DNA of 64,000 nucleotides from Spirochaetia bacterium (GTDB lineage: Bacteria > Spirochaetota > Spirochaetia > UBA9216), in the NCBI GenBank assembly GCA_965140585.1, contig OZ223269.1:480001-544000 (forward strand), given 5' to 3'. This document shows positions 21,103 through 46,283 of the stretch, piece after piece. Below the pieces are notes generated by a model, which saw nothing but the letters and a program-made list of their open reading frames with translations, searched no databases and was not told the origin of the DNA. The number at the start of each line of letters is the position of its first letter. Position 1 is the stretch's first letter. A program made the translations under genes and the position numbers.

Positions 21103-22338
21103 TCAATCATATTTGCGCATTTTAGTGAACAGACTGTCTATCCACGGCCTTGATTCAATATAGAACTTGTCCTGGGCCTTGAGAAAGGCCTTGAACGAGT
21201 TATTATAATCCTCAAGAAAGTAATAGACCTGACCAAGATAAAAACTTGCTGATGCTTCAATATCACGGTCTCTGCGTATTTTCTGAAAATCAATAAGTCT
21301 TAGTTTTGCAGCCTCGTAATCCCCGCCGGAGAATTCTGAATTTAGAATTGCGGAAAGAATAGCCCGTTCACTTCCCTGTGCAGGATTTCGGTCCTGTTTG
21401 AGAATAACCGGTTCAATTACATCAGTTGCCGGAAGACTGATTCCCCTTAAAAGCATGGAAACTGCAGCTTCCGTAGATGTTGAGATATCTTTCTTCTCCG
21501 GAACTATATCAATGGCTGAAGTTGATAGCTCACGTCCGGTCTGAAATCCGCGGCTTAGCGAGAGGTAGGGAAGAGGTCTCGGTCTTGATATTACAGTCTT
21601 AGGCAGGCCGACACGTTCAGTATTTCTGAGTGTGATTTCAACGGGTACAGAGGTAAAGTTTTCTCCTGCTTTGAAAATGAAATTACCTGTTTTAATCAGA
21701 TTTGAATCTATGATACCGTAATAGTATCCGATACCCGGAACCGGATAATCAGTATATGAGCTGGCGGAACCCTGAATAGTTGCTATCAGGTTTGCTGCAA
21801 GCAGATCGTCACGGGACTCGATCGGTTCGGTATTCCTGTATACAAAAAGTTCAGATGCAGGTTTGCTTGAGCGGAATGAAAGCTGTATAGCTTCTTCTGT
21901 AGCCCAGGCTTTCAGGCTTGTGATAAGGGAAGGACTATTATCCTTGATCTTTTCAGCTATTCTTGCACCCTTGGTTGTTAAATTCCTGAAAGGAATAAAT
22001 ACTTCATTAAAATTACCGTCAGGTTCTTCCATGAAAACAGCATAATAGTAGTCGGTTCTGCTGTATGGCGGGAAATCTTCGTAATATTCAATATCTTTTG
22101 CTACACGTGCTATTTTAACTGCGGAAGACAGATTTTCGGAAGTAATCTGAACTGTATTCCGGTAGATTATACAAAGACCGTCTACATCATCTGTGTCATT
22201 CCAGGTCAGGGTTATACTGTTATCTCCCGATTCAGCCTTAAGTCTCGAGACAAACGGAGTAAAGATGGAATTTTCCTGACTGAATAGAGCGGAACATGCG
22301 ATTGTAAGTAAACTGAGCAGAATAATACTCTTTTTCAT
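21103..22338 (-). CDS. Secreted protein with two FN3-like beta domains and a C-terminal TPR
   Basis: Signal peptide. Duplicated motifs ITLTW..IYR..YED..YYYAV and IQLSF..VYR..YTD..YYYGI. FYLGQVYY TPR. Confidence 0.75.
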   Translation of the reverse strand: MKKSIILLSLLTIACSALFSQENSIFTPFVSRLKAESGDNSITLTWNDTDDVDGLCIIYRNTVQITSENLSSAVKIARVAKDIEYYEDFPPYSRTDYYYAVFMEEPDGNFNEVFIPFRNLTTKGARIAEKIKDNSPSLITSLKAWATEEAIQLSFRSSKPASELFVYRNTEPIESRDDLLAANLIATIQGSASSYTDYPVPGIGYYYGIIDSNLIKTGNFIFKAGENFTSVPVEITLRNTERVGLPKTVISRPRPLPYLSLSRGFQTGRELSTSAIDIVPEKKDISTSTEAAVSMLLRGISLPATDVIEPVILKQDRNPAQGSERAILSAILNSEFSGGDYEAAKLRLIDFQKIRRDRDIEASASFYLGQVYYFLEDYNNSFKAFLKAQDKFYIESRPWIDSLFTKMRKYD

Positions 22339-22390: not shown

Positions 22391-22419
22391 TTGACATAAA
22401 AAAAATATCTTTCTAAACT
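22391..22419 (+). promoter_or_regulatory. Near-consensus sigma70 promoter, with ATG at the expected +1 (leaderless)
   Basis: TTGACA-17 nt-TAAACT-6 nt-ATG(22426), no SD. Confidence 0.75.
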
Positions 22420-22425
22420 GTATCA

Positions 22426-22698
22426 ATGTTCGTATCAGTAGTATGTGATATTGCCGACGGCGGCCACAGAGATCAGGTTTTTGATTATCTTCGCCGATAC
22501 GGTTTTAAGAGTGTTATAGAGAACACCTTTGAGAGCACTTCAATAAGCGAGAAGGCTCTTCAGCGGCTGAAATGGGATATAGATAAATCCACTGATTTTT
22601 ATGATAAAATCAGGTTTTATCAGTATCCTTTTGAGGGAACTATGGTAATATCATTTCTCAACGAAAAGAAATGGAAAAAATCAGTTATTAAAACATAG
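22426..22698 (+). CDS. cas2: Stand-alone Cas2-like (Cas2/VapD ferredoxin-fold) protein
   Basis: 90 aa. VSVVCDI (compare LVxYDI, Asp8), LRRYGF..VIENTFE (compare L..yG..vQ.SVFE), DKIRFY (compare D.irvY). Confidence 0.75.
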   Translation: MFVSVVCDIADGGHRDQVFDYLRRYGFKSVIENTFESTSISEKALQRLKWDIDKSTDFYDKIRFYQYPFEGTMVISFLNEKKWKKSVIKT

Positions 22699-22717
22699 CA
22701 GACAAACGGGAGGCTTT

Positions 22718-23822
22718 ATGCTGCAGGATATAGACTCAGAGCTTGTTCAGCTCGAAAAAAAGATATCAGAAACTTGGAGGCATCTTTGACCCGGACAAGC
22801 TGAAGTCACAGATAGCCGAATTTGAAAAACAGACTGCCGACGAAAATTTCTGGAATGACCGTGAAAATGCAGAGAGAGTACTTGGCGATATGAAGCGAAT
22901 CAGGGGCAGACTTGAACCCTGGGAGCAGATTAAAACCGAGGTTGAAGATGCAAGGGAACTTTATACGCTGGCAGTTGAGGAAGAAGATGAATCCCTTGAA
23001 ACGGAAATTAAATCAGCGGTAGATGCCATAGCATCCCGTTATGAAAAACTTGAAATTCTTGAGCTTCTCGGTGATAAATTTGATTCAAATAATGCATTCC
23101 TTACTATACATTCCGGTGCCGGCGGAACTGAGGCCTGTGACTGGGTTAATATGCTTTACCGTATGTATTCAAGATGGATTGAAAGACATGATTTTAAATT
23201 CAGTCTGCTTGATCTCCTTGAAGCGGAAGGCGGCATAAAATCTGTTACTGTTCAGGTTTCAGGCGATTATGCTCATGGATACCTCAAGGGAGAATCGGGA
23301 ATACACCGGCTTGTAAGAATTTCTCCATTTGATTCAAGTGCCAGACGCCATACTTCATTCGCCTCTGTATATGTATCACCTGTGATTGAAGATGATATTG
23401 ATGTCGATATAAAACCGGATGATATCCGTATTGATACATACAGGGCTTCCGGAGCAGGCGGCCAGCATGTTAACAAGACCGACTCTGCAGTACGAATTAC
23501 TCATATTGCTACAGGTATTGTAGTGCAGTGTCAGAATGAACGCAGTCAGCATAAGAACAAAGCTAATGCAATGAAAGTTCTGCGTTCCAGGCTTTATGAG
23601 CACTATCAGGCTGAGCAGGAAAAAGAGAATGAAAAGCATGCCCAGGAAAAAAAAGATATTTCCTGGGGAAATCAGATAAGATCATATGTCTTTCATCCCT
23701 ACAACATGGTAAAAGATCACAGAACCAGGCATGAAACCGGAAATATTCAGGCGGTGATGGATGGAGACCTCGAAAAGTTTATAGAGGAATTTCTTAAATG
23801 GAACTGGGCGCAGAAAAACTGA
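22718..23822 (+). CDS. prfB: Peptide chain release factor 2, expressed through a programmed +1 frameshift
   Basis: SD GGGAGG and ATG 22718, 23 codons, then GGAGG-CAT-CTT-TGA-C slippery site (TGA 22787-22789). The +1 frame contains the SPF and GGQ motifs. Confidence 0.97.
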
Positions 23823-24217
23823 CGGACGGACTGCTCTCACGTGGTGTGATGATAGTCGATGATCTATCGTTTATGAGAACAGTAATACGTGAAATACTTG
23901 AAGAGGCATCAATTCCGGTTGCTGATGAAGCTGAAAACGGTCTTGAATGCCTTGAAAAATATTACAGCAATCCGGTTGATATTGTTCTGCTTGATATAAC
24001 CATGCCTGTAATGGATGGGCTGGAAGCACTTGAAAAGCTGATGAAAATTGACGGTAATGTCAAAGTTATAATGTGCTCTGCCATGGGACAGGATAAGTTT
24101 ATCATAAAGTCGATTCAGCTCGGTGCCCGGGATTTTATAGTAAAGCCTTTTAAACCGGAAAGAATACTTTCTGCAGTAAGGAAAGCTGCCGGGTATAATG
24201 AAAAATCAGTTAACTGA
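23798..24217 (+). CDS. Single-domain response regulator (CheY-like)
   Basis: IVDD, LLDITMPVMDG, SAMGQ, KPF. Confidence 0.9.
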   Translation: MELGAEKLTDGLLSRGVMIVDDLSFMRTVIREILEEASIPVADEAENGLECLEKYYSNPVDIVLLDITMPVMDGLEALEKLMKIDGNVKVIMCSAMGQDKFIIKSIQLGARDFIVKPFKPERILSAVRKAAGYNEKSVN

Positions 24218-43461: not shown

Positions 43462-46283
43462 TATGATTTAAGTCCCAGTTCCTCAAAAAGTTTTTTATAA
43501 ACCTCGAAATGCTCAGATTTGGCAAATTCAGTAATCTTATCATCAGGAAGAGATTCAAGCAGGTGGTCCATATATGAGAGTACTGATTTTATATCATCTC
43601 TGAGATCTTCAGGTATGGAGGCGATGGTGTCATCATCAACAGCGGATATTTCAGAGATGTCTGATGCATTTTCTTCCGATTCAACTGATTCCGGAGCGGG
43701 ATCTTCCGGGGGGAGTTCTTCTATCGGTGAAACATCACTGTCATCAGTCTCCAGTTCTTCGTCGAATGAAATCTCATCAAAAGGCTCGTCTTCTATAGAA
43801 ACACCTGAGGATTCTTCACTTACAGATTCATCAGGATGTTCAAGCTCGTCAAGGCCTTCGATTTCAATCATCGAATCATCAGGCTCAGAGTCAATTGCAA
43901 ATTTTTCACCATCAAGCTCAATCTCGTCAGTAAGGTTTGTTTCCTCTTCTGGAATTTCGAGGGTAGTTGTACCGACTTCTATATCTGCAAAGCTTTCATC
44001 TTCATCCTCAAAAGAAAGCTCGTCAAGGTTAATATCATCAGTTGGTTCTTCAGACGGTTCCCCGATATCAGAGATTTCACTGTCTTCAAAAGAGAGTTCA
44101 TCGAGGTTGATTTCAGTATCTTCCTCGAGGTTTATAGCCTCGCCGTTGAGTTCTATAGCAGATTCATCAAGCTCTAATTCAGTGTCGTCGAGTTCAAGTT
44201 CGGTATCTTCAAGCTCTAATTCAGTATCTTCAAGCTCTAATTCAGTGTCGTCGAGTTCAAGTTCGGTATCTTCGAGCTCTAATTCAGTATCTTCAAGCTC
44301 TAATTCAGTATCTTCAAGCTCTAATTCAGTATCTTCGAGTTCTAATTCAGTGTCTTCAAGCTCTAATTCAGTGTCTTCAAGCTCTAATTCAGTGTCTTCA
44401 AGCTCTAATTCAGTATCATCGAGTTCAAGTTCGGTATCTTCGAGTTCTAATTCAGTGTCGTCGAGTTCAAGTTCGGTATCTTCAAGCTCTAATTCAGTAT
44501 CTTCAAGCTCTAATTCAGTATCTTCAAGCTCTAATTCAGTGTCTTCAAGCTCTAATTCAGTATCTTCGAGTTCTAATTCAGTATCTTCGAGTTCATCATC
44601 AAGTATGATCTCACCGTCATTAAGTTCAGCAGCAACTTCATCAAGATTCAGCTCTTCATCTTCCTGTGAGGTTTCTATATCCTCCAGAAAGAGATCGTCA
44701 TCGATTTCCAGTTCCTCTTCTTCAAGTTCGATATCGTTATCAAGATTAAGTTCGTCATCATCAATTTGAACACCTATTTCAGACAAATCAAGCTCTTCTT
44801 CAGCAGCGGCGGGTTCTTCAGTTGTTTCAACGTTTTCTAAAATTGTATTATCACTTGTAATAAGACCTTCTTCTTCCAGATTGAGGTCATTAAGATCGAT
44901 TTCTTCAGTTTCAGGTTCTTCAAGAACTATATCATCAAGATCAATGTCATCAGGAACATCTGTAATAATGTCGTCAGAAAAACTGACGGAAGAGGGTTCG
45001 TCACTTTCTTCTTCATTGATGTCAAAATCATCCATTTCAAGATCTTCAACTGAGGAAAGGTCAATTTCCTCATCATGGATAATCTCAAGTTCTTTTTCGT
45101 CAAGCTGAGACTCATCCGGCATTTCATCTGTATATCCGGAATCTGAAACTGACTCTTCAGGGATTTCAGTTACGTCAAATCCCGAAAGTAATTCTTCGGT
45201 GTCATCCTGGTTGAAAGTGTCATCAGCGGATGGGATGTCTTCGTTAAGAAGTGATTCTACATCGGTATCTGTTATTTCCTCTGAAGTAAAGGGTTCTTCA
45301 GGTTCCGCATCAAGATCCAGACCGCTGATTGAGTCAAGGTCAATATCTTCTATATTATCAAGTGAATCATCTGCCACTGTCTCGGTATGTGAATCATATG
45401 ATTCTTCAGGGGCTTCAGTTTCCTGTCCGCTTTCTTCTGTGATATCAGCTGTGTTAAGAATATTATCAAGCTCATCGCCTGTCAGCGCTATTGTTTCATC
45501 TTCATCTTCTTCGAAAAATCCGCCTGTCTCATCCGATTCAGCCGCAGAAGCTCCGGGAGCGGATTTGATAGTTGAAAGTTCTGATTTAAGGTCAGTAAGT
45601 TCCTTTTTAATAGAAAGAAGTTCTTCTTCTATCTTCATGAGAATCGATTTTGAACTTACAGATTCAAGTTCGTCAGCAGATGAGACTGTTTCACTCAATT
45701 CTGACATGCTTCCTGAAAGGTCATCTTCAATATTTGTTAAATCAGCTTCAAGAGCGTCAAGATCGTTAAATTCTGTATCAGTATCAGTTTCTATTTCAGG
45801 TTCTTCCATATCGAGTTCAGGAAGCTCGATATCAGGTCCTTCCAATGTGAAAGTGTCTTCGTCAATAACAGAGGCTTCGTCATCAGCTGTCGGAATGGTA
45901 TCATCTATATCGTCAAATGAGAAATCTTCATCATCGTCAATACCCGCTTCAATTTCGGACATCTCATCCTCTAAAGAGCTTAGAAGATTTTCTTCTTCGT
46001 CAGTCAGCAGGTCGTGTTCTTCTTCGTAATCTGCATCCTCATCTTCATCTTCTAAATTAAAATCGGAATCAAAATCTTCTTCAAAATCATCGCCTGAGAG
46101 ATCTTCAAGTACAAAATCTGAACTGTCGGTTTCATCCTCGGATTCATCGACGTCTACCGGGCCTGTTTTTACCCATACACCGTATTTTTCGAGTTCATCA
46201 TTGTCGTCTTCAAGTCCGGCTTGGATTTCGGTGTTGTCGTCTAAATCGTCAAAAGAAACATCCATATCATCAAAAGCGGCCAT
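43461..46283 (-). CDS. 940-aa hyper-acidic protein with a 20 x (E/D)DTELEL repeat
   Basis: SD AGGAG. D/E-dominated sequence with short ordered islands (LEKYGVWVK; a coiled coil; GGFFEEDEDETIALTGDELDNIL; C-terminal IKSVLSYMDHLLESLPDDKITEFAKSEHFEVYKKLFEELG). Confidence 0.85.
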   Translation of the reverse strand: MAAFDDMDVSFDDLDDNTEIQAGLEDDNDELEKYGVWVKTGPVDVDESEDETDSSDFVLEDLSGDDFEEDFDSDFNLEDEDEDADYEEEHDLLTDEEENLLSSLEDEMSEIEAGIDDDEDFSFDDIDDTIPTADDEASVIDEDTFTLEGPDIELPELDMEEPEIETDTDTEFNDLDALEADLTNIEDDLSGSMSELSETVSSADELESVSSKSILMKIEEELLSIKKELTDLKSELSTIKSAPGASAAESDETGGFFEEDEDETIALTGDELDNILNTADITEESGQETEAPEESYDSHTETVADDSLDNIEDIDLDSISGLDLDAEPEEPFTSEEITDTDVESLLNEDIPSADDTFNQDDTEELLSGFDVTEIPEESVSDSGYTDEMPDESQLDEKELEIIHDEEIDLSSVEDLEMDDFDINEEESDEPSSVSFSDDIITDVPDDIDLDDIVLEEPETEEIDLNDLNLEEEGLITSDNTILENVETTEEPAAAEEELDLSEIGVQIDDDELNLDNDIELEEEELEIDDDLFLEDIETSQEDEELNLDEVAAELNDGEIILDDELEDTELELEDTELELEDTELELEDTELELEDTELELEDTELELDDTELELEDTELELDDTELELEDTELELEDTELELEDTELELEDTELELEDTELELEDTELELEDTELELDDTELELEDTELELEDTELELDDTELELDESAIELNGEAINLEEDTEINLDELSFEDSEISDIGEPSEEPTDDINLDELSFEDEDESFADIEVGTTTLEIPEEETNLTDEIELDGEKFAIDSEPDDSMIEIEGLDELEHPDESVSEESSGVSIEDEPFDEISFDEELETDDSDVSPIEELPPEDPAPESVESEENASDISEISAVDDDTIASIPEDLRDDIKSVLSYMDHLLESLPDDKITEFAKSEHFEVYKKLFEELGLKS
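44169..44588. repeat. In-frame VNTR, 20 x 21 bp
   Basis: Unit AAGCTCTAATTCAGTATCTTC (plus strand) counted 20 times with minor variants. No spacers between units. Confidence 0.95.

Follow-up and report, generated by a model that had tools for sequence, protein, structure and literature searches.

Cas2 is the least understood of the core Cas proteins; spacer integration does not require its nuclease activity, and a link has been drawn between its origin and toxins of the VapD type. Outside the CRISPR setting, the nearest precedent found is BPSL1038 of Burkholderia pseudomallei, which the excerpted account of it assigns to a Cas2/VapD nuclease subfamily, with a catalytic D11, a homodimeric state, and a location outside any CRISPR locus (PMC10491678). 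For unusual translation starts in spirochetes, the nearest precedent is the 5'-end map of Borrelia burgdorferi, which, in the portion available, counts 85 mRNAs with a 5' untranslated region (UTR) under 10 nucleotides (nt) (PMC5314773). Here we describe a gene for a Cas2-like protein in a 64,000-nt stretch of a Spirochaetia bacterium genome (GenBank assembly GCA_965140585.1, contig OZ223269.1, positions 480,001 to 544,000 of the forward strand; hereafter, the window). The gene stands immediately ahead of prfB, the gene for release factor 2 (RF2), and an earlier interpretation made from the letters of the window (hereafter, the sequence-only reading) had singled it out as an orphan, leaderless Cas2-like gene. 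We give a probability of roughly 80% to the reading that this is a real, expressed gene of the Cas2 superfamily that left CRISPR-Cas and was fixed as the first cistron of the Spirochaetia prfB operon, and that it represents a single-copy, vertically inherited Cas2 lineage within the phylum Spirochaetota; the figure applies to these statements jointly.

The encoded protein is a member of the Cas2 superfamily by both sequence and fold. Residues 1 to 66 match the Pfam family PF09827 (Cas2) with 31 bits (cut-off, 23.8; E value, 3e-7), and the PADLOC Cas2 models score up to 31.7 bits, while the NCBIfam Cas2 models gave no match to the protein. When a profile was built from 80 orthologues, the first proteins of solved structure that it retrieved were Cas2 proteins (6k2e, 3exc, 1zpw, and 4qr0; E values, 1e-3 to 7e-2), and its alignment by hhalign with 12 canonical Cas2 proteins from related spirochete genomes had a probability of 96.8% (E value, 2.8e-10). 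The conservation counts given throughout refer to these 80 loci, which are the best 80 of 285 confirmed relatives found by a pattern scan of species-representative genomes and are spirochete records throughout. An AlphaFold2 (AF2) model computed on the alignment of the 80 orthologues has a pLDDT of 95.9 and the order b-a-b-b-a-b-b-b, with predicted strands at residues 2 to 8, 28 to 31, 34 to 37, 61 to 69, 72 to 79, and 82 to 88 and helices at residues 12 to 24 and 42 to 55. The top 22 rows of a Foldseek search were Cas2 or Cas2/3 (TMq, 0.51 to 0.71), as were most of the later rows. Likewise, ranks 1 to 36 of the VIA structure comparison were all Cas2 (Z, 8.7 to 10.9; 66 to 83 residues aligned), and VapD of Haemophilus influenzae appeared first at rank 37 with a Z of 8.6 (7.7 for its other entry), lower Cas2 rows lying within 1 Z unit. 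Between the two families that the sequence-only reading had set side by side, Cas2 and VapD, the profile match is to Cas2, and Cas2 stands ahead of VapD in the fold ranking, the lower Cas2 rows being within the tie range of VapD.

The protein begins with MFVSVVCDI, which includes C7-D8-I9, and D8 lies at the end of the first strand. At position 8, 73 of the 80 orthologues have D, 6 have E, and 1 has G, which makes the residue acidic in 79 of them. An aspartate at the end of strand 1 is the metal-binding residue of Cas2, a point drawn partly from general background and partly from the excerpted BPSL1038 account (PMC10491678). Twelve residues are invariant among the 80 sequences, and M-F at the start does not vary. 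The invariant patch specific to the family consists of E36, K49, D53, D57, D60, R63, Y65, Q66, and P68, and W83 is invariant as well. The family has an invariant motif of its own, LK-D-D--TD-YD--R-YQYP, and K/R residues surround W83 in a basic C-terminal hairpin, K-K/R-W-R/K-K/R. All of these residues were located along the sequence only and not on the surface of the model.

Throughout the genome, and not only within the 64-kb window, the gene is an orphan. The source assembly is 98.49% complete in 10 contigs and holds a single Cas2 match, which is this gene; it has no match to Cas1 (PF01867), RAMPs (PF03787), Cas5 (PF09704), or Cas4 (PF01930). Our own repeat scan (exact 14-mers in at least 3 copies, spaced 40 to 110 nt apart) found no CRISPR array in the source genome, although a diverged or unassembled array could escape it. 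The sequence-only reading had found no cas1, other cas gene, or array in the 64 kb, and this absence now extends to the genome for Cas1, Cas4, Cas5, RAMPs, and the array. Two candidates raised by the scan (G000:C6:524173-524530 and 1179189-1179708) were rejected as head-to-tail coding tandem repeats with units of 21 nt and 57/30 nt, respectively. The first belongs to a tract at about 44167 to 44588 of the window (G000:C6:524167-524588), where the 21-nt unit recurs in ∼20 head-to-tail copies without spacers. The second belongs to a tract beyond the window (G000:C6:1179156-1179800), a 57/30-nt tandem repeat with consensus units GGATACCAGGGCAA... in an open frame on the + strand that is free of stops over 1.3 kb. 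Neither is an array.

The same separation from CRISPR-Cas is seen among 41 related genomes, of which 8 have both the gene and Cas1, 18 the gene only, 5 Cas1 only, and 10 neither. The gene is thus found in 26 of the 41 and Cas1 in 13, and 18 of the 26 carriers have no Cas1 match. In 7 of the 8 Cas1-positive carriers, those with readable adjacency, a canonical Cas2 lies a few hundred bases from cas1. The carriers named with such a Cas2 beside cas1 are G007, G009, G016, G024, G031, and G032, and the noncarriers are G011, G014, G026, and G033; the exceptions among Cas1-positive carriers are G004, whose two Cas1 matches are fragmentary, and G008, for which no canonical Cas2 is listed. The canonical proteins adjoining cas1 score 52 to 99 bits against PF09827, and the prfB-linked family scores 24 to 42 bits. 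Because a canonical Cas2 is already present beside cas1 where adjacency can be read, the Cas2-like family does not complement a cas2-less cas1.

The place that the gene occupies instead is the head of the prfB operon. The open reading frame (ORF) runs from 22426 to 22698 of the window on the + strand, from ATG to TAG (22696-22698), and encodes 90 amino acids (aa); its identification draws on PF09827, the AF2 model, the structure matches, and the ratio of nonsynonymous to synonymous substitutions (dN/dS). The prfB gene follows on the same strand (22718 to 23822; PCRF and RF-1 domains), its ATG at 22718 being 19 nt past the TAG, and the spacer contains its Shine-Dalgarno sequence, GGGAGG (22708 to 22713, +). 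Translation of RF2 passes through a +1 programmed frameshift site, CTT TGA C, at 22784-22790, following 23 codons. The sequence-only reading was right about the 90-aa frame with its Cas2 pattern and the Asp8 within CDI, about the 19-nt distance to prfB, and about the lack of an adjoining small antitoxin gene. The start that it gave, 22391, is where the -35 box begins, and the ORF itself starts at 22426. No ORF of antitoxin size lies beside the gene, the flanking ORFs of at least 20 aa being chance frames of 20 to 24 aa besides the 23-codon first frame of prfB.

The prfB gene is directly downstream on the same strand, within 250 nt, at all 80 loci. The junction between the two genes, measured from stop codon to ATG, mostly spans -11 to +52 nt, with an overlap of 8 or 11 nt at 9 loci, and GGAG or GGAGG precedes the prfB ATG at most of them. 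Every one of 79 related prfB loci has the CTTTGA frameshift site. At one locus, L120 (Treponema socranskii-like), the spacer is roughly 110 nt and the protein is extended by 16 aa at its C terminus, so that some Treponema do not keep the tight junction. Behind prfB, a response regulator is found at 63 of the 80 loci; release-factor genes do not usually have a conserved partner of this kind. The sequence-only reading had placed the gene at the head of a prfB-ftsY-lolCDE run, and this holds for the window, where the neighbors are as it named them, and for prfB and the response regulator, the two downstream neighbors that the survey covered; it does not carry over to other classes, where none of 7 loci is beside prfB.

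Inheritance within the class is regular. Searching with the family profile gave exactly one copy in 178 of 401 sampled class genomes and in 78 of 156 genera (E values, 1e-30 to 1e-45), with a single match per genome even where Cas2 matches number up to 4. Taxonomic families mostly have the gene in all members or in none (10/10, 16/17, 5/5, and 8/8 versus 0/38, 0/37, and 0/12), with one mixed family (11/20). Pairwise identities of the protein are correlated with those of the RF2 encoded beside it (Pearson correlation, 0.79; reached by 0 of 999 Mantel permutations). The dN/dS is 0.035 to 0.081 in the 6 of 21 close pairs for which dS was computable, dS being saturated in the remainder, and such values point to strong purifying selection on the protein. 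Among 1.84 billion representative proteins, only 70 clusters matched at an E value of ≤1e-3 and 34 at ≤1e-10, so that the family is small and well separated. The pattern that the sequence-only reading had named as contrary to its view was a patchy gene, unlinked to prfB, that complements cas2-less cas1 loci; what we see is presence by family, linkage to prfB at 80/80 loci, and a canonical Cas2 beside cas1, with 18 of 26 carriers lacking Cas1. Its view of a domesticated Cas2-fold protein outside defense is supported by this single-copy, prfB-linked, mostly Cas1-free distribution.

Upstream of the ORF, a -35 hexamer TTGACA (22391 to 22396, +) is followed after a 17-nt spacer by a -10 hexamer TAAACT (22414 to 22419, +), and a further 6 nt lead to the A of the ATG at 22426. 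Both boxes were called from the sequence and a promoter scan, and TTGAC is kept across orthologous loci. Sigma-70 promoters usually start transcription at about this distance from the -10 box, and on a leaderless mRNA ribosomes initiate on the 5' AUG and use no Shine-Dalgarno sequence. Taken singly, the promoter is not significant: 27 promoter-like sites turned up in 10 kb, where 24.6 were expected. The call takes its weight from the conservation of its geometry across genomes. TTGAC occurs within 60 nt upstream at 73 of the 80 loci, compared with 6% of random 60-nt windows, and it lies 34 to 39 nt before the ATG at 72 of them. For the 73 loci with TTGAC, the hexamer at the 17-nt spacing is TAAACT in 25, TACACT in 16, and TAGAGT in 5 (46 together), and in GC-rich members TTGACG ... 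TAGGGT is arranged in the same way. Translation begins with ATG at 79 loci and with GTG at 1, and a Shine-Dalgarno-like motif precedes it at 1 of 80 loci and is absent from the source locus. Taken together, these counts show a promoter-to-ATG layout of the leaderless type that is conserved across the class. The near-perfect promoter with the ATG at its expected +1, as described in the sequence-only reading, agrees with the sequence and with this conserved layout, and the Treponema RNA data described below fit it.

We used as a proxy a Treponema orthologue (locus L119; ATG at 2567), raw-read RNA runs being available for that group; its protein matches a T. denticola database entry exactly. Three stranded raw-read RNA runs of a Treponema relative were mapped on this locus, with reads 90 to 99% alike and from libraries that are not specific for 5' ends. 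Sense-strand depth in the three runs was 0.45, 0.11, and 0 in the bin 2520-2583, which ends 16 nt past the ATG, and 136, 39, and 53 in the next bin. In run X20, depth stayed between 320 and 540 across the Cas2-like stop and into prfB, on the strand expected for + RNA. The gene is thus expressed in this relative and cotranscribed with prfB, with no detectable leader.

Beyond the class, a phylum-level sample gave 15 further full-length matches (E values, 1e-23 to 1e-27). Seven of these orthologues (L112 to L118) are 36 to 41% identical and keep the D-K-L-R-I-Y-Q-Y-P and K-W-K-R motifs; two of them start with GTG. The neighbors vary among the seven loci, none being common to all, so that no conserved partner was found for the gene outside Spirochaetia. 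A TPR-like protein of roughly 690 aa is divergently upstream in 3 of the 7 and a GGDEF-domain protein adjoins the gene in 2 of the 7. One weak match, in G575 (31 bits, residues 1 to 67), was taken as a canonical Cas2 and not as an orthologue, and it gave no tblastn match to the window protein.

Several observations weigh against our reading or narrow it. All seven orthologues from other classes have a GGAG-type Shine-Dalgarno sequence and no prfB within about 2.5 kb; therefore, the protein is older than its linkage to prfB, and its function cannot depend on that adjacency. Within Spirochaetia, whole families have prfB, still frameshifted, without the Cas2-like gene, and in one genome without it the upstream neighbor immediately adjoins prfB, a clean case of absence; RF2 can therefore do without the Cas2-like protein. 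D8 (73/80) is less conserved than the family-specific patch (80/80), so the active surface may differ from the classical Cas2 one, and nuclease activity, metal binding, and dimerization are all inferred. The cross-tabulation of the gene with Cas1 comprises 41 genomes that are akin to each other and partly incomplete. Lastly, fragment ends in the Treponema RNA cluster within the ORF, 17 and 33 nt from the ATG (2584 and 2600 of L119), which makes the 5' boundary imprecise. Given this boundary, the 90 to 99% likeness of the reads, and the type of library, the data do not establish that +1 falls on the A of the ATG.

The mechanism we propose within these bounds is that a sigma-70-type promoter would start transcription on the A of the ATG or no more than a few bases away from it, yielding a leaderless mRNA. 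Behind a very short spacer, prfB would then be translated from its own Shine-Dalgarno sequence and via the +1 frameshift, and the dosage of the Cas2-like protein in Spirochaetia would be tied to that of RF2. As to what the protein does, we tentatively suggest a Cas2-like dimer that binds a divalent metal through the acidic residue at position 8 and that may bind or cut nucleic acid (probably RNA), its role being one of housekeeping and not of immunity. This suggestion, possible but on the doubtful side, comes from the retained ferredoxin-like core and N-terminal acidic residue, together with the invariant patch and the basic C-terminal hairpin.

A more specific version would have the metal-dependent RNA-binding or RNA-cutting dimer act in step with RF2, clearing or cutting mRNA at terminating or stalled ribosomes; we consider this unlikely. 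The same low standing applies to the general form of the idea, a translation-linked factor working with RF2, for example by bringing RF2 to stalled or nonstop ribosomes or by adjusting termination or frameshifting in prfB; the operon link would then be the mark of a physical or functional partnership. Its appeal is plain from the constant position of prfB downstream, with overlapping or very short junctions, from cotranscription at similar depth in the Treponema relative, and from the conserved K/R around W83 in the C-terminal stretch, known RF2-recruiting rescue factors being small and basic tailed. The fold, however, is a compact Cas2 domain and not that of an unstructured tail protein. A direct tie to RF2 is weakened further because the other-class loci are unlinked to prfB (0/7), because Spirochaetia families keep a frameshifted prfB without the gene, and because there is no complementarity with ArfB, an ArfB-like ORF being present in 21 of 26 carriers and 4 of 15 noncarriers. 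Replacement of ArfB by the Cas2-like gene was accordingly rejected, as ArfB-like ORFs mostly co-occur with it. In the source genome, a small ORF with an RF-1 domain (G000:C1:747890-748234; open frame of 152 aa, 64.7 bits) is probably an ArfB-type peptidyl-tRNA hydrolase, and 25 of the 41 related genomes have ORFs like it. A complex prediction for the Cas2-like protein with the post-frameshift part of RF2 scored 0.00, which speaks neither for nor against binding.

It is less probable again that the gene matters in cis, as a translated leaderless upstream cistron that sets prfB transcription, mRNA stability, or coupling, with the protein being incidental. The fixed geometry from promoter to ATG and the very short or overlapping prfB junctions would suit such a role. 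The protein itself does not look incidental, given its low dN/dS, 12 invariant residues, and confidently modeled fold, and in other classes it is encoded by a Shine-Dalgarno-led stand-alone gene away from prfB. Very unlikely, to our mind, is a VapD-like toxin or the leftover of a degraded defense locus, selfish or decaying, despite the shared fold and the Z scores of H. influenzae VapD, which fall in the tie range with the lower Cas2 rows. Such a gene would be hard to reconcile with single-copy, clade-consistent inheritance alongside RF2 under purifying selection, with its position at the head of an essential-gene operon at 80/80 loci, or with expression at a depth like that of prfB; moreover, no antitoxin-sized ORF adjoins it, and 36 Cas2 entries outrank VapD. 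Finally, a working adaptation Cas2 that serves a CRISPR locus in trans, away from cas1, is scarcely credible: the protein does pass the Cas2 profile and keep the N-terminal acidic residue, and 8 of the 26 carriers have Cas1, but the source genome lacks both Cas1 and an array, most carriers have no Cas1 match, and in the 7 genomes where adjacency is readable a much higher-scoring canonical Cas2 sits within a few hundred bases of cas1.

The other genes around the Cas2-like gene are as follows. A receiver-only response regulator (23798 to 24217, +; PF00072) has a 25-nt overlap with the 3' end of prfB, and by domain search it is followed by a PEGA-domain protein, FtsY, and LolC/D/E-like ABC parts. 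Directly upstream and divergent lies a 411-aa gene (21103-22338, -) without a Pfam match; it is present at 51 of the 80 loci and is still beside prfB in one genome without the Cas2-like gene.

Proteins of this family carry the database labels "CRISPR-associated protein Cas2" or "hypothetical protein." We found no literature on the family, its linkage to prfB, or its leaderless start in the full text of open-access PMC and bioRxiv, supplementary tables being outside the search. A Cas2 lineage that left CRISPR by exaptation and became the fixed first gene of the prfB operon is thus undescribed in the literature searched, the Cas2 label itself already being in databases. That label inflates the counts of CRISPR-Cas components in spirochete genomes that have none. 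More broadly, the family offers a natural experiment on what a Cas2 fold does alone, without CRISPR, when it is kept for very long in single copy, and because it includes cultivable oral Treponema species it is directly testable. The class-wide arrangement in which a leaderless first cistron precedes a prfB with a Shine-Dalgarno sequence and regulation by frameshifting would also make a clean system for studying leaderless translation in spirochetes. If the translation-linked role were true, it would make this the first case of a Cas protein taken up into the core quality control of translation.

Compared with known systems, the family is closest to canonical Cas2 (PF09827; 1zpw, 2i0x, 4es2, and 6k2e; E. 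coli Cas2, 4p6i/5ds4), with which it shares sequence homology, the ferredoxin-like core, a length of about 90 aa, and the acidic residue of strand 1. It differs in lacking cas partners in the source genome, in its lower PF09827 scores (24 to 42 bits), in having its own motif and a KKW(R/K)(K/R) hairpin, and in being vertically inherited in single copy within a housekeeping operon. BPSL1038 is likewise a Cas2-fold protein outside CRISPR that keeps the Asp, and it sets a precedent for non-CRISPR roles. As far as its excerpted account goes, BPSL1038 has no BLAST-detectable similarity to Cas2 and has an extra C-terminal helix, whereas the spirochete family scores above the threshold of the Cas2 profile and has beta strands at its C-terminal end; BPSL1038 also comes from a different phylum, and that excerpt mentions no link to prfB (PMC10491678). 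VapD toxins (H. influenzae, 6zi1/6zn8; Z, 8.6 and 7.7) are of the same fold class, but the spirochete gene has no antitoxin partner, its distribution is not mobile or patchy, and Cas2 entries rank higher. With regard to translation, the leaderless mRNAs of Borrelia, as represented in the available portion of the 5'-end map (PMC5314773), indicate that this mode is present in the phylum, in keeping with a Cas2-like gene whose -10 box lies about 6 to 7 nt before the ATG with no Shine-Dalgarno sequence. Unlike the Borrelia case, as far as that portion describes it, the putative leaderless cistron here heads a polycistronic mRNA whose second gene, prfB, is Shine-Dalgarno led, and this arrangement is conserved class-wide.

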